In this document: piece by piece, positions 2,681-11,867 of the stretch
Layout: the number at the start of each line of letters is the position of its first letter
How positions within the stretch are numbered: position 1 is the stretch's first letter
IMG/VR virus record: IMGVR_UViG_2695420600_000009
Direction: 5' to 3' (one strand)
Source: a virus
Taxonomy: Duplodnaviria > Heunggongvirae > Uroviricota > Caudoviricetes
DNA length: 12,619 nt
The notes under the pieces: model-generated
The model's database searches: none
What the model saw: only the letters and a program-made list of their open reading frames with translations
Told to the model about the DNA's origin: nothing
Position numbers and translations under genes: made by a program

Positions 2681-2873
2681 GAATCCTCCCGGCCGGGATA
2701 ATATTGTGAGTAAAATAAGGAGCGGGCTGAAGTCCGGAAGTTACAGGACAATGGCAGAAGAGAGACGACAGCCCGCAATTCGAAAAAGACCGCGCAGTTG
2801 CGCAGAGTGATTACTATGGGGTATTATTCGCCAGCTGAAATATTACTTCACGTTTTATTGTTTATTCCTTGCC

Positions 2874-2902
2874 GCCCGCGTCTCCCAGCGCGGGCTTTTT
2901 TT
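2874..2902 (+). terminator. plus-strand intrinsic terminator-like hairpin inside repeat A (second copy at 4700..4728)
   Basis: GCCCGCG-TCTCCCAG-CGCGGGC followed by TTTTTTT on the plus strand. Confidence 0.5.
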
Positions 2903-2910
2903 GCCCACAA

Positions 2911-2931
2911 GAAAACCCCTCCGGAGAGGGG
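2911..2931 (-). terminator. minus-strand terminator-like hairpin T1 in repeat A (copy at 4737..4757; diverged sub-repeat version at 3397..3418)
   Basis: Minus strand CCCCTC-TCCG-GAGGGG followed by TTTTCTTG. Confidence 0.45.
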
Positions 2932-3179
2932 CTAAAGCCGCGTATCTGTATCATCATGCACATGGTGCCGGGTGCCTCCCGGTGAGTTCAGCCCGGTGCC
3001 ACTAAACCCGCGTCATTCTCGTTTTGATAATCAGAGATTATACCGTCACCAGTCGCCCCTCCGCTCAGGGGGATTCACCATGCGAAATTTTTTTAACAAA
3101 TGCCCAGTCTGACAGGCAACTGTCAACTTACTGAATTGTGAGCAACATAGCATTTAACGGGGAACCTGTTTTCTGCAGT

Positions 3180-3206
3180 AAAAAGGCCCACCGGAGCGGA
3201 TGGGCC
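3180..3206 (-). terminator. minus-strand terminator-like hairpin T2 in repeat A (copy at 5006..5032)
   Basis: Minus strand GGCCCA-TCCGCTCCGG-TGGGCC followed by TTTTTACTG. Confidence 0.45.
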
Positions 3207-3811
3207 TGGAAGGATAGCGGTCATGTGATGCCGGTTTCCCGGTAACTCAGCACCGGTATCTGAGTCAACGTTTTCTCTACTGGGTCATTTCCGATACGCC
3301 CTGCCTGCTGACAGGCTTTCATCACATCTGAAAATATAGCACCCTGACTGATACTGTAGTACCTAAGGTTCCAGAAACTGTGATGTATCCGGCACAGAAA
3401 AGCCCCTCCGGAGAGGGCTGGAGAGTGGCGCTATGTGCCATTGCATGATGCCGGGTGCCTCCCGGTGAATTCAGTACCAGCACCTGAATCCGCGATTATC
3501 CCATATACCTACTCGCTGATTGCCCCTCCGCACAGGGGGATTCACCATGCCAGTTTCTTTTAACAAACTCCCCGCAAACCAGACAACAGTCAACCGCCTG
3601 AATTGTGAAGTATTTAAAAATTTCTCCCGCTAACTGATACCCGGCTAACAGTCTGGCGTTTTCTTTTTCAGCAACGGGAAAGCAACAACCACCACACCCG
3701 CCACCAGCACACCGTCAGCCAGCACTGACATTATCCGGCTGCTGCAATGCCATTCACAAAAACAGTAAGCAATCACTTTTTACCGTAACAGGTGATAATC
3801 CAGATATGTAT

Positions 3812-4138
3812 CTACCCCAGATGAGTAATCCGAAGTTCATCCATACCACAGGTCCTGGCTATTCTGTTGTACTCCTGAACAAGAGCAAATAATTCTGAAT
3901 TAGCAACCATGAACTCATCGCAAACCCTCTGTATAGCATCACTATTCAGAATAATAACGTCTCTTCCCGAAAGACGATCAGGAGTACAGAACAAAACTGT
4001 CAAACGGCTGAAGGCCTTTGCTCGTGCTGCATTGACTATATCAATACGCTGCCTAAGGATGAAACACCCCGACGCCTCATCAATATTCACTCTACCCACA
4101 CCATATGAATGATAAATATTTAATGCTGAAAAAACCAT
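3812..4138 (-). CDS. hypothetical protein in AT-rich cargo segment (108 aa from first ATG; ORF track extends to a TTG at 4165)
   Basis: A 354-nt open frame in clearly AT-rich DNA, where stop codons are frequent, argues for real coding. It is on the late-transcribed strand. No convincing SD and no family I can recognise. An antisense 67-aa ORF (3909..4112) overlaps it. Confidence 0.35.
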   Translation of the reverse strand: MVFSALNIYHSYGVGRVNIDEASGCFILRQRIDIVNAARAKAFSRLTVLFCTPDRLSGRDVIILNSDAIQRVCDEFMVANSELFALVQEYNRIARTCGMDELRITHLG

Positions 4139-4275
4139 TAGACCGTATAACAAACACTCAATCAATACTTAACAGAACTTTTATTTTTGACAAACATAAA
4201 ATATTTTCAACAATATCCTGAGCCAGGTATATTTCAGTATAAGGCTCTGCCGGAAGGAATCTGGAAGAATGAATA

Positions 4276-4352
4276 TGGCGCGCTGTACTGGATTCGAACC
4301 AGTGACCGATTGCTTAGAAGGCAATTGCTCTGTCCGGCTGAGCTAACAACGC
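4276..4352 (-). tRNA. tRNA-Arg (anticodon TCT), cluster 1
   Basis: Reverse complement GCGTTGTTAGCTCAGCCGGACAGAGCAATTGCCTTCTAAGCAATCGGTCACTGGTTCGAATCCAGTACAGCGCGCCA folds as a 77-nt cloverleaf with anticodon loop CTTCTAA, T-loop TTCGAAT and encoded CCA. One G-U pair in the acceptor stem, where cluster 2 has A-U. Confidence 0.85.
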
Positions 4353-4365
4353 TGAATACCGATAA

Positions 4366-4445
4366 TGGACCGCCATCGGGGACCCGCCCCCGCACCAACA
4401 ACCCTGTTATCATGTCGTCTGCTCTTCCTGATAAGCTAATGGCGG
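4366..4445 (-). pseudogene. degenerate tRNA-like sequence (disrupted counterpart of tRNA-Arg TCG at 5572..5648)
   Basis: Acceptor stem, D-arm, 3' T-stem half and CCA match the cluster-2 tRNA. The anticodon arm, variable loop and 5' T-stem are replaced by AGACGACATGATAACAGGGTTGTTGGTGCGGGGGCGGGT, which does not form a cloverleaf. Confidence 0.6.
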
Positions 4446-4452
4446 TTTGTGA

Positions 4453-4528
4453 TGGTGGCCCTTGCTGGATTTGAACCAGCGACCTGGCGATTATGAGTCG
4501 CTCGCTCTCACCACTGAGCTAAAGGGCC
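4453..4528 (-). tRNA. tRNA with anticodon CAT (Ile2/lysidine-type or Met; ileZ-like), cluster 1
   Basis: Reverse complement GGCCCTTTAGCTCAGTGGTGAGAGCGAGCGACTCATAATCGCCAGGTCGCTGGTTCAAATCCAGCAAGGGCCACCA; 76-nt cloverleaf with anticodon loop CTCATAA. Stx-type phages carry ileZ-argN-argO at this position. Confidence 0.85.
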
Positions 4529-4567
4529 GGGAGCAGAATAATAACGGTCCGTAATTAATTCCGCAAT

Positions 4568-4681
4568 AAAAAACCCGCTCGGCGGCGGGTTGTAGAAACT
4601 CTTCTAACGTCAGGCATAAAACGCCCATAGTTATGACGAATTTACCACAGATTCCGGAAAAATCAACCTAGTTACCTTTTT
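4568..4681 (-). repeat. repeat B copy 1: duplicated Q 3' tail plus terminator module (remnant; second copy 7299..7413 is attached to the intact Q gene)
   Basis: About 114 bp identical, bar one or two bases, to 7299..7413. It encodes the last ~17 codons of Q (KVTRLIFPESVVNSS stop) followed by the terminator hairpin at 4568..4591, with no upstream Q coding sequence. An N at 4682 marks the junction with repeat A copy 2. Confidence 0.8.
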
Positions 4682-4682
4682 N

Positions 4683-5450
4683 ATTGTTTATTCCTTGCCG
4701 CCCGCGTCTCCCAGCGCGGGCTTTTTTTGCCCACAAGAAAACCCCTCCGGAGAGGGGCTAAAGCCGCGTATCTGTATCATCATGCACATGGTGCCGGGTG
4801 CCTCCCGGTGAGTTCAGCCCGGTGCCACTAAACCCGCGTCATTCTCGTTTTGATAATCAGAGATTATACCGTCACCAGTCGCCCCTCCGCTCAGGGGGAT
4901 TCACCATGCGAAATTTTTTTAACAAATGCCCAGTCTGACAGGCAACTGTCAACTTACTGAATTGTGAGCAACATAGCATTTAACGGGGAACCTGTTTTCT
5001 GCAGTAAAAAGGCCCACCGGAGCGGATGGGCCTGGAAGGATAGCGGTCATGTGATGCCGGTTTCCCGGTAACTCAGCACCGGTATCTGAGTCAACGTTTT
5101 CTCTACTGGGTCATTTCCGATACGCCCTGCCTGCTGACAGGCTTTCATCACATCTGAAAATATAGCACCCTGACTGATACTGTAGTACCTAAGGTTCCAG
5201 AAACTGTGATGTATCCGGCACAGAAAAGCCCCTCCGGAGAGGGCTGGAGAGTGGCGCTATGTGCCATTGCATGATGCCGGGTGCCTCCCGGTGAATTCAG
5301 TACCAGCACCTGAATCCGCGATTATCCCATATACCTACTCGCTGATTGCCCCTCCGCACAGGGGGATTCACCATGCCAGTTTCTTTTAACAAACTCCCCG
5401 CAAAACAGACAACTGTCAACCGTCTGAATTGTGAGACATTTAAAAAAAAG
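4683..5450. repeat. repeat A copy 2 (see 2853..3620)
   Basis: Near-identical to copy 1 over ~770 bp. ORF-track entries 5297..5530 and 5346..5552 in this region run into the tRNA genes and are rejected. Confidence 0.9.
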
Positions 5451-5481: not shown

Positions 5482-5558
5482 TGGCGCGTTGTACTGGATT
5501 CGAACCAGTGACCGATTGCTTAGAAGGCAATTGCTCTGTCCGGCTGAGCTAACAACGC
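5482..5558 (-). tRNA. tRNA-Arg (anticodon TCT), cluster 2
   Basis: Same 77-nt sequence as 4276..4352 except an A-U instead of G-U pair in the acceptor stem. Confidence 0.9.
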
Positions 5559-5771: not shown

Positions 5772-6830
5772 TCATCCGTTCTGGCTGACTAAATCCTGTA
5801 CTTCCCGAACCGTCTGCTCAAAACGTTCAGTCTCCAGCTCAACGCCAATTGCACGACGCCCGAGCGCCAGTGCCGCTTTCACTGTCGAACCCAACCCCAT
5901 GAAAAAATCTGCAATCAGGTCACCCGGACGACTGCTAGCGCTGATTATCTGCTGCAGCATTTCTGCCGGTTTTTCGCACGGATGTTTCCCGGGATAGAAC
6001 TGCACCGGTTTATGCGTCCACACATCGGTATACGGCACCTGCACCGTCACGCCAAAATACCGCCGCAGATGTTTATATTCACTCAGCAGCTCCGCATACT
6101 GCCGGTTCAGTGAGGTATACGTATCCACCAGCTGGTGGTGGAGCTTTTCCAGTTCACCACGCCGATGCTTCTCTTCTGCCACCCGGGCAAACAGCGCCTG
6201 TAATTTCAGATAATCGCTTTCATTCGGCAACTGCCACTGACCGGCACTGAACCAGTGCGACACCATGTTTTTCTTTCCTGTGGCATCTGCAATCTGTTTT
6301 GCCGTTATCCCCAGGGCAGCTCGCGCATCACGAAAGTAAGAAATCAGCGGGGCCATCACATGCTGTTTCAGTGCACTGCCCTTCGCCGCATACCCGGCAT
6401 CTTTCGGACGATACGGCCCCTGATAATGTTCCGCGAACAGAATGCGCTCTGTGGCGGGGAAATACGCCCGCAGGCTTTCCTTGTTGCATCCGTTCCAGCG
6501 TCCGGACGGCTTCGCCCAGATAATATGGTTCAGCACACTGAAGCGTTCACGCATCATGATTTCGATATCAGATGCCAGGCGATGACCACAGAACAGGTAA
6601 AGACTTCCGGCAGGTTTCAGCACCCGCCAGAACTGCGCCAGACACTGGTCCAGCCACTTCAGGTAATCATCGTCGCCCTTCCACTGGTTATCCCAGCCCT
6701 CAGGCTTCACTTTAAAGTACGGCGGGTCCGTGACTATCAGGTCAACAGAATTTTCGGGTAACGACCGGATAAATTCCAGGCAGTCGGCGTTGATTAACTC
6801 ACAACTGGATATTTTTACAGTATTAAGCAT
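5772..6830 (-). CDS. DNA methyltransferase, beta-class amino-MTase (N6-adenine or N4-cytosine), orphan (no adjacent endonuclease gene)
   Basis: 352-aa ORF with catalytic motif DPPY near the N-terminus (LIVTDPPYF) and a SAM-binding FxGxG-like motif near the C-terminus (DFFMGLGST). This motif order is typical of beta-class MTases. Sits between Q and the tRNA cluster. Confidence 0.85.
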   Translation of the reverse strand: MLNTVKISSCELINADCLEFIRSLPENSVDLIVTDPPYFKVKPEGWDNQWKGDDDYLKWLDQCLAQFWRVLKPAGSLYLFCGHRLASDIEIMMRERFSVLNHIIWAKPSGRWNGCNKESLRAYFPATERILFAEHYQGPYRPKDAGYAAKGSALKQHVMAPLISYFRDARAALGITAKQIADATGKKNMVSHWFSAGQWQLPNESDYLKLQALFARVAEEKHRRGELEKLHHQLVDTYTSLNRQYAELLSEYKHLRRYFGVTVQVPYTDVWTHKPVQFYPGKHPCEKPAEMLQQIISASSRPGDLIADFFMGLGSTVKAALALGRRAIGVELETERFEQTVREVQDLVSQNG

Positions 6831-7178: not shown

Positions 7179-7298
7179 GTCTTTTCCTTTTCCGGTTAAC
7201 GTGACACACCAATAACTCTTGTCGAAAAAGCCAGCAAGCTGAAAGACAGGTATTCACCGCCACCAGCGCGTTTACTGTACTGACGCGATTTCAGTCAT

Positions 7299-7322
7299 AA
7301 AAAACCCGCTCGGCGGCGGGTT
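7299..7322 (-). terminator. intrinsic terminator immediately downstream of Q (candidate tR')
   Basis: Minus strand CCCGC-CGCCGA-GCGGG followed by TTTTTTAT, ~40 nt after the Q stop codon. Duplicated at 4568..4591. Confidence 0.6.
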
Positions 7323-7361
7323 GTAGAAACTCTTCTAACGTCAGGCATAAAACGCCCATCG

Positions 7362-8216
7362 TTATGACGAATTTACCACAGATTCCGGAAAAATCAACCT
7401 AGTTACCTTTTTTAACTGCCGCTCAGCCCATGCTTCTTCAATATCAAACCGGGTCACCAGCGCATCATAGAATTTCTTAACTGTTTTTTCCCATGACGCG
7501 CGTGTTATCTGGTTTGTCACCTCGCATATAGCATTAAATGCCTCCGTTGATGGTAGTCTTTCATAGCCACGACCACCACAACGCTGGCAGTCTCTGATAA
7601 CAGGCATACCACGTTTTACCGACTCTTCACGATGAATGGCGACACCACGCCCACGGCAATCCTTACAGGCGGTGGAAACCTCACCCTTTCCGCCACACTC
7701 CGGACAGGCAACTTTTACCACCTCCCTGACTTTTTTCCATTCTTCCCAGTAAGACGGATACACACCTTTCGTACACTTTGCCCATACCGGCGGCTTACCA
7801 TCCGGATACTGGATCTTGTTTGTAAAAACCTCGCTTTCAATAAATTTTTTTCCGTGACAGCAGGGGCACTGTTTTTTGCTCGCCGCGCTACGGGCATAAT
7901 CTTCAAACGCATACGAAGCCATAATACGCATCACTGCCGGTTTTATTTCTGCCGGGAGTTTTCTTAACGCCGCCACGCGATCACACCGACTGAGTGCATA
8001 TTCTGTCAGCAATTCTGTTGCCCGCTCTCTGTCATTCATACTAATGCCCATTTTCCCAAGGAACGCAGAAACCCCCATCTCAGCCCGATTCTGTGTCATG
8101 CCCTGCGCGGCCATCACATCAGTGATACTCAGCGCATCTTTCGACGTTGAGGCCGATGCATCAGTCAGGCCGGGGGATTTTGGGGAGTAGTATTTCGGTA
8201 AATCTTCCAGTTTCAT
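7362..8216 (-). CDS. Q: Q-family late-gene antiterminator with four CxxCxG(xG) zinc-finger-like motifs
   Basis: 284-aa ORF in the canonical position: downstream of rusA with ATGA start/stop overlap, upstream of terminator, tRNAs and lysis genes. The N-terminal region resembles Qin-type Q (quuQ-like) proteins as I recall them. Cys motifs CPCCHGKK, CPECGGKG, CKDCRGRG, CQRCGGRG. Confidence 0.7.
   Translation of the reverse strand: MKLEDLPKYYSPKSPGLTDASASTSKDALSITDVMAAQGMTQNRAEMGVSAFLGKMGISMNDRERATELLTEYALSRCDRVAALRKLPAEIKPAVMRIMASYAFEDYARSAASKKQCPCCHGKKFIESEVFTNKIQYPDGKPPVWAKCTKGVYPSYWEEWKKVREVVKVACPECGGKGEVSTACKDCRGRGVAIHREESVKRGMPVIRDCQRCGGRGYERLPSTEAFNAICEVTNQITRASWEKTVKKFYDALVTRFDIEEAWAERQLKKVTRLIFPESVVNSS
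7370..7397 (-). promoter_or_regulatory. candidate late promoter pR' overlapping the last codons of Q
   Basis: Minus strand TTGATT (-35), 16-bp spacer, TAAATT (-10), located just upstream of the terminator at 7299..7322. Hexamer match only; no experimental support. Same motifs in repeat B copy 1 at 4639..4666. Confidence 0.3.
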
Positions 8217-9653: not shown

Positions 9654-9932
9654 TTACCTCCAGATCCGTTGCTGGAATGTGCGGGACGGACGCGTTGGCC
9701 GTTCGGAGTAAGGGAGCCTGACGGAGATTATCCAGTGACGGTAGTCGAGGCTAAGGGCTTTTTTAACCTCGCATCCGCGCCTGCGGTAACACTGAATGAG
9801 CCATTCGGCCTGTTCTTCAGTGCATGGGGGATGCTGGTACCAATCAGATTTAAATGCGTGAGAGCGCCGCCCGTGCCTGCTGGCAAAGACGGCTGAATTA
9901 TCAGAATTGTGTAGTCTGGAATTTTGCGCCAT
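9654..9932 (-). CDS. hypothetical prophage protein (92 aa)
   Basis: ATG at 9932 with SD GGAGAAAG. The same RBS-plus-start context is duplicated at 10628. No family recognised. Confidence 0.45.
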   Translation of the reverse strand: MAQNSRLHNSDNSAVFASRHGRRSHAFKSDWYQHPPCTEEQAEWLIQCYRRRGCEVKKALSLDYRHWIISVRLPYSERPTRPSRTFQQRIWR

Positions 9933-9998
9933 CGGCTTTCTCCGGTGGCACAGTGTTACTCAACAGGGGTTCAGCCCTGCGCTGAATTGTAGATGAAT

Positions 9999-10259
9999 TC
10001 ACTCATCTTCAAAAGCAGAAAAACCAGCCTTAATCCCAGCTTCTTTCAGAGACGGCAACGATGTGACAAATTCATTTGCACGCGAAATAAAACCATCCGT
10101 CACAAGCCCATCCACAAAATGAATTAACGCAGCTCCACTCTTCCTTTGTTGAGACTGTAAACATTTAATACGGCAGTGGCTGACAATAGCGCCATTCTCA
10201 ACGCGCACAGTATAGAGGCCATCTTCACTAAAAATTTCACGTAATTCTTCGATTTTCAT
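9999..10259 (-). CDS. hypothetical protein, paralog 1 of a tandemly duplicated gene (86 aa from ATG; track shows a TTG one codon upstream)
   Basis: MKIEELREIFSEDGLYTVRVENGAIVSHCRIKCLQSQQRKSGA is ~85% identical over the first ~75 residues to the ORF at 10667..10954. SD GGAAGGA. Family not recognised. Confidence 0.6.
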   Translation of the reverse strand: MKIEELREIFSEDGLYTVRVENGAIVSHCRIKCLQSQQRKSGAALIHFVDGLVTDGFISRANEFVTSLPSLKEAGIKAGFSAFEDE

Positions 10260-10343
10260 CAACAGAATCCTTCCAGATAAATAGCACTCCCCTGTTCGGG
10301 GTCCATCCCTCTTCTCCCTGCGCGCTACTTAAGTGAGTCGATT

Positions 10344-10374
10344 NNNNNNNNNNNNNNNNNNNNNNNNNNNNNNN
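10344..10374. other. assembly gap (31 N)
   Basis: Run of N in the sequence. It interrupts the gene starting at 10628 and the upstream region of paralog 1. Confidence 1.
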
Positions 10375-10628
10375 CACAGGTAATCAACGAAACCGGACAC
10401 CAGTTTTCGTTCGCGAGGCGTGATCGCCCCACCGACCGGAGTCCAGTAATCGAAACCCAGTTGCAGGAGTTTGAAAAAACGCTTGTGGAATGCGTAGTTA
10501 CACACACGCTTAAAGTCTGCGTGTATCCACTCACCTATTTTGATTTGATGCAGAAAATCGCAACTCTCCGGCGTCGCCGGGAGAAGTAATCCGGAAGAGG
10601 TTTGTTTGACCAGTTGTATATGTGCCAT
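10375..10628 (-). CDS. hypothetical prophage protein, 3' end lost in the gap
   Basis: ATG at 10628 in the same duplicated RBS context as 9932; MAHIQLVKQTSSGLLLPATPESCDFLHQIKIGEWIHADFKRVCNYAFHKRFFKLLQLGFDYWTPVGGAITPRERKLVSGFVDYL, then N. The track ORF 10329..10670 reads through the Ns. Confidence 0.45.
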
Positions 10629-10666
10629 CGGCTTTCTCCGGTGGCACGGTGTTACACAGCAGGAGT

Positions 10667-10954
10667 TCAATCCTGCTCAAGATTGTAGATGAGTTTATTC
10701 TTCAGCAAAAGCAGAAAACCAGCCTTAAAACCAATCTCTTTCAAAACCCGTAATGATGTGACAAATTCGTCCTCACGCAAAATAAAACCGTCCGTCAGAA
10801 GTCCATTACAAAAATAAAATAACACAGCACCGCTCTTCCTTTGTTGAGATTGCAAACATCTAATGCGGCAATGGCTGACAATCGCTCCATTCTCAACGCG
10901 CACAGCATAGAGGCCATTTTCACTAAAAATTTCACGCAATTCTTCGATTTTCAT
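10667..10954 (-). CDS. hypothetical protein, paralog 2 of the tandemly duplicated gene (95 aa)
   Basis: ATG at 10954 with SD GGAAGGA. Upstream on the minus strand is TTGATT-16 bp-TAGAAT, a plausible sigma-70 promoter. The C-terminus diverges from paralog 1 after KAGF. Confidence 0.6.
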   Translation of the reverse strand: MKIEELREIFSENGLYAVRVENGAIVSHCRIRCLQSQQRKSGAVLFYFCNGLLTDGFILREDEFVTSLRVLKEIGFKAGFLLLLKNKLIYNLEQD

Positions 10955-11077
10955 CTTCAGAATCCTTCCAGATAAATAGCTCTCCCCTGTTCGGGGTCCA
11001 TCCCTCTTCTCCCTGCGCGCTACTTAAGTGAGTCGATTCTATCTGCGAAGGTGCGCGAATCAAATTCACCGGAAATA

Positions 11078-11126
11078 AACAACAAAAAACCCGCCGAAAC
11101 GCTGAGAGATCACAGCGATGGGCGGG
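11078..11126 (-). terminator. terminator-like stem-loop after the truncated hok copy
   Basis: Minus strand CCCGCC ... GGCGGG stem enclosing an inner CGCTG/CAGCG stem, followed by TTTTTTGTTGTTTATTT. Confidence 0.45.
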
Positions 11127-11203
11127 TTAAGTGCGGGTGCGTTGAGGATGCCTGACACATCAGAGGTGGGCGGGGATGGGATCAGCTCCCCGCCCGGTCA
11201 CTC

Positions 11204-11303
11204 TTACTTCCTGGATTCGTAGTCTACGAAGACAGCGACCTCCGTCTGGCCGGTTCGGATTCGTACCTCACAGAGGTCTTTCCTCGTTACCAGTGCCGTC
11301 ACT
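11204..11303 (-). pseudogene. truncated hok copy (3' ~33 codons plus 3' UTR), tandem to the intact gene
   Basis: Minus strand reads ...TRKDLCEVRIRTGQTEVAVFVDYESRK stop, homologous to the C-terminal half of the hok ORF at 11421..11576. The copy begins at an N (11304) directly after the intact gene's terminator. The 3' UTR (11127..11203) is homologous to 11353..11420. Confidence 0.7.
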
Positions 11304-11319
11304 NAACTTCAAACGCGTT

Positions 11320-11351
11320 GAAAATAAAAACAAAAACCCGCCGAAGCGGGT
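11320..11351 (-). terminator. intrinsic terminator of the hok transcript
   Basis: Minus strand CCCGC-TTCGG-GCGGG followed by TTTTTGTTTTTATTTTC, ~70-100 nt downstream of the hok stop. Confidence 0.6.
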
Positions 11352-11420
11352 TAAGTGTGGGTGCATTGAGGATGCCTGACCCATCAGAGGTGGCGAGGGA
11401 TTTCTCCCCCGCCTGGTCTC

Positions 11421-11576
11421 TTACTCCTCAGGTTCGTAAGCTGTGAAGACAGCGACCTCCGTCTGGCCGGTTCGAATTCGTACCTCGCAGAGGTCTTTCC
11501 TCGTTACCAGTGCCGTCACTATGACGGTTAAACAGATGACGATCAGGGCGATTAACATCGCCTTTTGCTGCTTCAT
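11421..11576 (-). CDS. hokD: Hok/Gef-family type I toxin (51 aa), HokD/RelF-like
   Basis: MKQQKAMLIALIVICLTVIVTALVTRKDLCEVRIRTGQTEVAVFTAYEPEE matches the HokD (RelF) sequence as I recall it. SD GGAGAAGCAGG upstream. The track ORF (11421..11633) also contains an in-frame upstream ATG with its own SD (mok-like leader). No relBE genes precede it here. Confidence 0.9.
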   Translation of the reverse strand: MKQQKAMLIALIVICLTVIVTALVTRKDLCEVRIRTGQTEVAVFTAYEPEE

Positions 11577-11867
11577 AGCCTGCTTCTCCTTGCCTTTCGG
11601 CACGTAAGAGGCTAACCTAGATTTGCCGTTCATAGATTGAGCCTCAGATTAATGTTAAGCGTCTTGCCGGACGCGTAATGTTAACTGGGGCTTTTCTCTA
11701 TCTGCCTTTTGGTGTTCATGCCTGAGACAGATAGCCTCAAGCACCCGCTGCAATTCTACTTAACTCTCCTTTTCCCGCAAACCGTTTTTATCCCCAGCGG
11801 CAAATCGAATACACCACCAGCGCCACCGCCATCGCAATTCCTACCGTTGTTAATGCTTCAGGCCAGG

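Follow-up and report, generated by a model that had tools for sequence, protein, structure and literature searches.

Which gene does a lambdoid prophage carry at the point of its late operon where Shiga toxin (Stx) phages place stxAB, and is that gene a toxin, some other cargo or a working part of the phage? The question arises from a 12,619-nt stretch of DNA from a tailed phage (Caudoviricetes; IMG/VR record IMGVR_UViG_2695420600_000009), which we refer to as the window. The window, when read on its minus strand, shows the late-regulatory region of a lambdoid prophage (Table 1). It contains a 655-bp insert (3621-4275) placed between tRNA-Arg(UCU) and the first copy of a repeat, repeat A, that comprises two STnc100 sRNA genes; tRNA cluster 2 has no counterpart of this insert. 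The GC content of the insert is 41.5%, against 50.3% across the whole window, 50-52% in the flanks and 51.6% in repeat A. Most of the low GC is found in the 185 nt upstream of the longer of two open reading frames (4091-4275, 31%) and in that frame itself (44%), which we call gene X; the second frame, a DUF3927 ORF, has 51%.

Table 1. Features of the window in minus-strand reading order, followed by the corresponding unannotated gaps in related loci
Feature	Position	Strand	Basis or remark
Antiterminator Q (PF03589)	7362-8216	minus	preceded by hok/sok, DUF968 and RusA, which start the order
N6/N4 DNA methylase	5772-6830	minus	after Q
tRNA cluster 2: Ile2-type CAU, Arg-UCG, Arg-UCU	5731-5482	minus	followed by two STnc100 genes
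STnc100-family sRNAs, repeat A copy 2	4729-4938 and 5216-5405	minus	Rfam
Second copy of Q 3' end and its downstream region, 123 nt	4559..4681	minus	repeat family D5; 97% identical to 7290-7412
pR'-like TTGATT-16-TAAATT	4666..4639	minus	by eye; within Q 3'-end copy
tR'-like terminator	4591..4572	minus	terminator scan; within Q 3'-end copy
tRNA cluster 1	4528-4276	minus	followed by the insert, then two further STnc100 genes
tRNA-Arg(UCU), argO-like	4276-4352	minus	ARAGORN and Rfam; upstream boundary of the insert
AT-rich spacer, tRNA-Arg to gene X	4166..4275	minus	base composition
Sigma-70-like site TTGAAA-16-AAAAAT	4210..4183	minus	consensus scan, 9/12 match only; weak, not evidence of function
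In-frame 5' extension (TTG 4165, ATG 4138)	4091..4165	minus	homologue starts; predicted untranslated leader
Gene X, 92 aa	3812..4090	minus	GTG start 4090, TAG stop 3812-3814; core of ORF 3812..4165
tciA 3'-end remnant (TerB family)	3786..3804	minus	local alignment to phage JLK-2012 tciA/tciB
DUF3927 ORF, 43 aa, GTG start	3645..3776	minus	Pfam PF13064, PHROG 1470; tciB with damaged 5' third
STnc100-family sRNA, proximal unit of repeat A copy 1	3390..3579	minus	Rfam RF02076; downstream boundary of the insert
STnc100-family sRNA, second unit of repeat A copy 1	2903-3112	minus	Rfam RF02076
DUF1737-SASA-DUF6645 esterase, NanS-p type	827-2680	minus	P21-type holin closes the region
Unannotated X gap, L001	9083-9584		
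Unannotated X gap, L097	6086-6584		
Unannotated X gap, L009	5001-5499		

The boundaries of the insert follow from the structure of repeat A. This unit is a pair of distinct STnc100-family sRNA genes that each have a terminator (Rfam RF02076 scores of 161 and about 123 (122.5) bits; gathering score 47), and it is present twice at an offset of 1826 bp, with copy 1 running from ~2857 to 3620 and copy 2 from 4683 to ~5446. The copies are 100% identical over 2857-3578, with a few mismatches at the tRNA-proximal end and fraying near 3620 and 5446. From these boundaries, copy 2 starts ~34 nt from the tRNA-Arg at 5482 and copy 1 lies 655 bp from the tRNA-Arg at 4276. A relationship between the STnc100 family and the PasD sRNAs found in pathogenic E. 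coli has been reported, and TerB genes and STnc100 were described as typical neighbours of prophage sRNAs (Zhu, Shabalina and Storz, bioRxiv 10.64898/2026.05.13.724894).

Several further features of the window were recorded alongside. The duplication junction (4679-4682) of the 1826-bp tandem unit (2856-4681) is absent from all 5426 complete E. coli genomes searched, none of which covers more than 85% of the window; therefore, this tandem pair of tRNA modules could reflect either a rare rearrangement or an error of assembly. A single N stands at 4682, where repeat A copy 2 meets the duplicated Q 3' end across a short microhomology, a run of A. A run of 31 Ns (10344-10374) and a further single N (11304) are masked or unresolved bases; they fall within imperfect direct repeats (families D2, D7, D8 and D10; 9925-11520). 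The middle gene of tRNA cluster 1 (argN position, 4353-4452, minus strand) is degenerate, retaining its acceptor and T-arm ends with the anticodon region replaced; neither ARAGORN nor Rfam calls it, and the same degenerate tRNA is found in phage mEp460 and in strain 64. Lastly, a hok/sok-type type I toxin-antitoxin locus lies at 11421-11746 on the minus strand (Rfam sok, 112 bits; 70-aa ORF at 11421..11633).

In the Stx2a phage WGPS2, the gene order is Q, methyltransferase, ileZ-argN-argO, stxA, stxB, SASA esterase, holin. In the window, it is Q, methyltransferase and tRNAs, then, after the last tRNA-Arg, the insert, two STnc100 genes, a SASA esterase of the NanS-p type and a P21-type holin. 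Because WGPS2 carries stxAB at the same place, the insert sits in the stx slot, downstream of ileZ-argN-argO-type tRNAs and upstream of the esterase and holin; the window differs from the stxAB locus in having its STnc100 genes between the insert and the esterase. Apart from stxAB, occupants of this slot in other phages and prophages include tciAB, an AraC-type regulator, a TolA-like gene and IraM. The closest match to the window, a prophage of E. coli 042 (85% coverage, 96% identity), has a collinear late region without the insert. Presence or absence between collinear phages and a base composition unlike that of the flanks are among the marks of a moron, and the insert displays these two; it shares presence/absence, deviant GC, small size and location with classical lambdoid morons (bor and lom of lambda; the AraC-like regulators and IraM of this slot). 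We consider that the segment is probably a partly decayed accessory ("moron") cassette in a cargo hotspot of the late operon. The first-pass annotation, made from the letters alone, had described an AT-rich segment of ~650 bp lacking a counterpart at tRNA cluster 2, assigned it to the stx slot and taken it for accessory cargo, and the measurements and gene orders given above bear out all three points. It also supposed that the segment holds a single cargo gene, which is incorrect: it overlooked the second ORF (3645..3776), as well as the STnc100 identity of repeat A, and the segment contains X and the remains of a tciA-tciB module.

The DUF3927 ORF scores 95.6 bits against Pfam PF13064 (cut-off 25, E 1.7e-27), matches PHROG 1470 ("TciB-like") and carries the PGAP name "DUF3927 family protein". 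Positions 3804-3631 of the window align with the last ~19 nt of tciA and with tciB of phage JLK-2012, where the slot after Q and the tRNAs is filled by tciA (143 aa, with a Pfam TerB match) overlapping the 54-aa DUF3927 gene tciB, with the esterase and lysis genes next in order. The motif CTGTGA, which in JLK-2012 contains both the tciA stop and the tciB start, reads CTGTTA in the window, so that the stop TGA has become TTA and the start GTG has become GTT. An 11-nt deletion and five deletions of 1-2 nt break up the first hydrophobic helix; over the 3' two-thirds, the sequence is almost identical to that of JLK-2012. The remaining ORF, with 43 aa against 50-54 aa in TciB, has IAYCFCEWHCS in place of the N-terminal helix and keeps the second helix, and hence is not a full-length two-helix TciB. 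Of 74 copies, 12 have either lost the annotated start or acquired a premature stop. A dN/dS comparison with JLK-2012 is uninformative because the shared part is nearly identical DNA. The alignment and the disrupted copies together indicate that the DUF3927 ORF is a decaying tciB and that tciA has been lost, deletion and recombinational replacement being indistinguishable as the route of that loss.

The known systems closest to this arrangement are the tciA-tciB(-tciC) modules of P1 and JLK-2012, which, like that of the window, adjoin phage tRNA genes, and the distal part of the segment is homologous to JLK-2012 at the DNA level. They differ from the window in having no counterpart of X; conversely, the window lacks tciA, and its tciB lacks the start and the first helix. 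Genes for tRNAs lie beside tciA-tciB both in P1 (L120, 69029-70689; Asn, Thr ... Ile2) and in JLK-2012 (L010, 3106-4100; Asn, Thr, Gly), and the tRNA-tci linkage appears to be old. The Tci function in phage P1 has been assigned only "by homology"; we found nothing in the literature on the function of DUF3927 or of TciB in the tci sense, and no functional data there for tciA or mEp460. X is not P1 TciC: that protein has 35 aa, and among 50,697 phage records a tblastn search with X matches mEp460 only.

Related prophages combine X with intact tci genes. Complete X-tciA-tciB-holin arrays are found in contig L012 (X 63% identical), in a Citrobacter braakii prophage (L013) and two IMG/VR contigs (L117 and L118; X 38%), and in eight more IMG/VR loci. 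Among loci of the window type, 77 contain X with the tciB remnant and two contain X alone, and a TerB match downstream of X was seen in none of the 85 tallied. The L012 type comprises eight intact loci and nine with X alone, and in the L007 type X comes after an AraC-type regulator, with a degenerate tciB sequence. X is found without tciAB in three of four sub-lineages, and the fourth, that of the window, is always without tciA. Since X occurs without tciAB in several types, it has repeatedly been kept while its neighbours were lost. These gene orders show a link between X and tciAB, newly drawn here, and an ancestral cassette X-tciA-tciB. Contig L012 (JAEWMQ010000075.1, 2.7 kb: methylase fragment, X, tciA, tciB, holin) is labelled "MAG: Bacillota bacterium"; its tciA and tciB are close to the Citrobacter prophage versions and the contig matches IMG/VR prophage contigs, and it is probably mis-binned.

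The insert is common. Of 5426 complete E. coli genomes, 1183 (~22%) cover at least 80% of an 801-bp query that spans the segment, and the 655-bp segment is 99.2% identical in phage mEp460_ev081. X might not be cargo but could serve the phage as a late-operon gene acting only in lytic growth, in lysis timing or holin tuning or in superinfection exclusion. X points the same way as the late operon in every case, lies immediately ahead of the lysis cassette or the cargo, stands directly upstream of tciAB-holin in L012 and L013, is retained when neighbouring cargo is lost and is present in the mEp460 record, all of which would suit such a role. Yet X is absent from most lambdoid late regions, including that of the window's closest relative, its low GC and AT-rich leader are those expected of foreign cargo, and distant homologues are found outside prophage late regions (next to a fimbrial operon; next to a GerE-type regulator), so that we regard a purely phage-serving X as possible but rather unlikely. 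Our preferred reading, an accessory cassette of which X is the retained part, accounts for the insert as ordinary cargo of a known class, which it is, and not as a new toxin.

What kind of protein X encodes can be narrowed down from its family and predicted fold. The 108-aa version of X matches PHROG 2873 end to end (positions 1-108 of 108, E 2.8e-70); no function is attached to this family or to PHROG 4827, a more distant counterpart of X, and the PHROG 2873 model is built on the 108-aa start, in contrast to the 92 aa indicated by the homologues. The family is very small, with 23 clusters in a word-indexed search of 5.8 billion proteins and lineages ~60%, ~40% and ~32% identical to X; no deeper family emerged, since an HMM search of 1.84 billion representatives gave only 20 members. 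Genomes from 185,579 species yielded three loci. Scanning X and its homologues against Pfam, NCBIfam and PADLOC gave nothing meaningful. An AlphaFold2 model from a shallow alignment (pLDDT 85, pTM 0.71) predicts an antiparallel hairpin whose two long helices (residues 3-35 and 50-81) flank a conserved loop with a T-P-D-R motif, and fold searches with this model returned only generic helical hairpins or coiled coils, with no significant match. The pI is 4.8-5.7 in six of nine aligned members, X among them, and 6.9-9.9 in the three distant ones, and inspection of the X sequence reveals no evident signal peptide or transmembrane segment.

Some diverged homologues adjoin transcription regulators, which may be a coincidence or a hint of a regulatory role. 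In the prophage late region of L007 (3969-5062), the homologue directly follows an AraC-type HTH_18 gene; of those in L096 (2507-4276) and L095 (1244-2375), one lies 1.2 kb from the divergent PapB regulator of a fimbrial operon and one near a GerE-type HTH.

We also considered whether X is a distant GapR-like (UPF0335/DUF2312) DNA-binding protein, because the family profile matches the first helix of four GapR chains in the PDB sequence set (E 0.05-0.25). These values, the best of them (0.054) included, are sub-threshold; none of the nine members matches Pfam DUF2312 at E up to 10, GapR is absent among the structural matches listed, and the acidity of six of the nine members, including X, speaks against the assignment. 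Homology to GapR is therefore very unlikely. Neither an enzymatic nor a toxic nor a DNA-binding activity is likely for X.

Whether X is a gene was examined by comparison with its homologues. The minus-strand ORF 3812..4165 comprises 117 aa from a TTG, with its first ATG at 4138, and the chance of 117 stop-free codons at this composition is ~4e-4 per frame position. The alignment with the L007 copy (61% identical) is ungapped over 279 nt and ends in the same stop, with a dN/dS of 0.26 and differences at the three codon positions of 24/22/44, so that third positions differ twice as often as the first and second. Four unsaturated pairs (homologues 59-63% identical), the L007 pair included, give a dN/dS of 0.23-0.26, the other three lying at 0.23-0.25. 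The sense frame is open in all seven diverged homologues, down to 32% identity, and is the only frame that is; the antisense frame with the same wobble positions, whose apparent dN/dS is also low, contains stops in six of the seven and was rejected as a real gene. Among 74 ungapped near-identical copies from IMG/VR and complete genomes, X is intact in every one, the 11 alleles differing at five synonymous and four or five non-synonymous sites (pN/pS ~0.3 by our own count). Judged by these substitution patterns, X is a real protein-coding gene under purifying selection.

X is not called by RefSeq PGAP (strains 64 and 6817), by RAST or in the deposited annotation of mEp460, and a gap of 500 nt is left in these records. 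The exact 108-aa protein is listed in UniRef and GenBank as a "hypothetical protein" from at least 1000 contigs, and the mEp460 record instead has a 117-nt ORF on the reverse strand of the leader that precedes X. One might accordingly take the interval for decaying non-coding DNA and X for a chance open frame, with its GTG start, weak Shine-Dalgarno sequence and an adjoining DUF3927 ORF that looks decayed. The selection estimates and the sense-only open frame contradict this, as do the conserved length and start, the confident fold prediction and the absence of disruption in all 74 copies, and we consider it highly improbable.

The homologues also revise the start of X. All distant homologues (91-95 aa) begin at the position equivalent to GTG 4090, and the ORF in L007 and L008 opens at the equivalent GTG, so that the upstream frame is closed there. 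On both counts X most likely has 92 aa (4090..3812), and not 108 or 117, and 4091..4165 is probably an untranslated leader; the DNA similarity between the window and L007 extends to ~4167, beyond the start of X. Several homologues have a clear Shine-Dalgarno sequence (AGGAG in L012), and a weak GGGTAGA precedes GTG 4090 in the window. The first-pass annotation had correctly identified the ORF at 3812..4165 with its first ATG at 4138 and proposed a coding frame of 3812..4138; the frame is coding, and the start was probably misplaced, the likelier GTG at 4090 having been missed. Conservation of the frame, suggested there as a check, counts against a chance ORF. Its statement that the ORF could not be assigned to any family still applies to curated functional families but not to PHROG 2873 (E 3e-70) or UniRef, which has an entry for it, nor to a segment present in mEp460 and 22% of E. 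coli genomes; the profile and structure searches that it recommended gave the PHROG match and no significant fold match.

The toxin-like character implied by the slot does not extend to its occupant: that X is a virulence factor of lysogenic conversion comparable to Stx and released at induction is barely credible despite its location and its presence in many human isolates, including large STEC-sized genomes, because X is a 92-aa acidic helical hairpin without sequence, fold or size relation to stxAB, has no match to Shiga or AB5 toxins in Pfam, NCBIfam or PDB sequences and no signal peptide, transmembrane segment or other secretion signal by inspection, and belongs to a segment that is widespread in environmental and animal isolates and also found in a Citrobacter prophage.

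Expression of X can be considered from its place in the operon. In lambda, 82 and 933W, transcripts from pR' pass on only when Q has modified RNA polymerase. In the window, the copy of the Q 3' end contains TTGATT-16-TAAATT, which we take to be pR'-like from its resemblance to lambda pR', and a tR'-like terminator; this element lies ~550 nt upstream of X, and X is on the same strand, downstream of Q, the element and the tRNAs. The usual context, seen in mEp460 and strains 64 and 6817, is Q, ~140 nt, tRNA-Ile, the degenerate tRNA, tRNA-Arg and then X, so that X is the first protein-coding gene after pR'-tR'. Morons can also bring their own promoter and terminator for expression from the repressed prophage; here the scans gave only the 9/12 consensus site at 4210..4183 and no terminator separating X from the tciB remnant, the next terminators being those of the STnc100 units. 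As the leading protein gene, X would be transcribed chiefly by Q-modified RNA polymerase once the prophage is induced, as its position suggests, and any gene in the slot is expected to be strongly expressed at that stage because Stx phages carry their toxin there. A weak promoter-like site in the AT-rich leader may give some expression of X in the lysogen.

Taken together, these observations point to the following history. The ancestral cassette X-tciA-tciB stood between the Q/methylase/tRNA block and the lysis genes. Its X gene encoded what is predicted to be a 92-aa cytoplasmic helical hairpin, its tciA a TerB-family protein and its tciB a small DUF3927 membrane peptide, ~50 aa long and containing two hydrophobic helices. 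The E. coli lineage of the window retains no more than ~19 nt of tciA, and small deletions have cost tciB its start codon and first helix. That X remains intact under purifying selection indicates that it is the functional part and needs neither TciA nor TciB. The X protein might pair as a dimer into a four-helix bundle that binds another protein, a low-confidence mechanism drawn from shape and charge alone, because the fold searches give only generic hairpins. Speculatively, it could modulate an envelope or stress function of the host or phage, as ascribed by homology to Tci/Ter proteins.

The insert thus points to no new toxin and no new kind of system; it is common, being found in ~22% of complete E. 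coli genomes, is tied by its history to the TerB-type tciAB module, and holds a conserved, selected gene that RefSeq and the deposited mEp460 annotation have missed. We suggest that these annotations be corrected to include X. As mEp460 carries the gene, X is a concrete and cheap target for phage genetics. More tentatively, and with a good deal of doubt, X may found an unrecognised helical-hairpin family, so far almost confined to enterobacterial prophages, whose members would be cytoplasmic partners or regulators of TciA/TciB that kept an independent function, perhaps in anti-defence, superinfection exclusion or lysis timing, after the module decayed; X would then come first among the late-transcript proteins in about one fifth of E. 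coli genomes, passed over by reference annotation.
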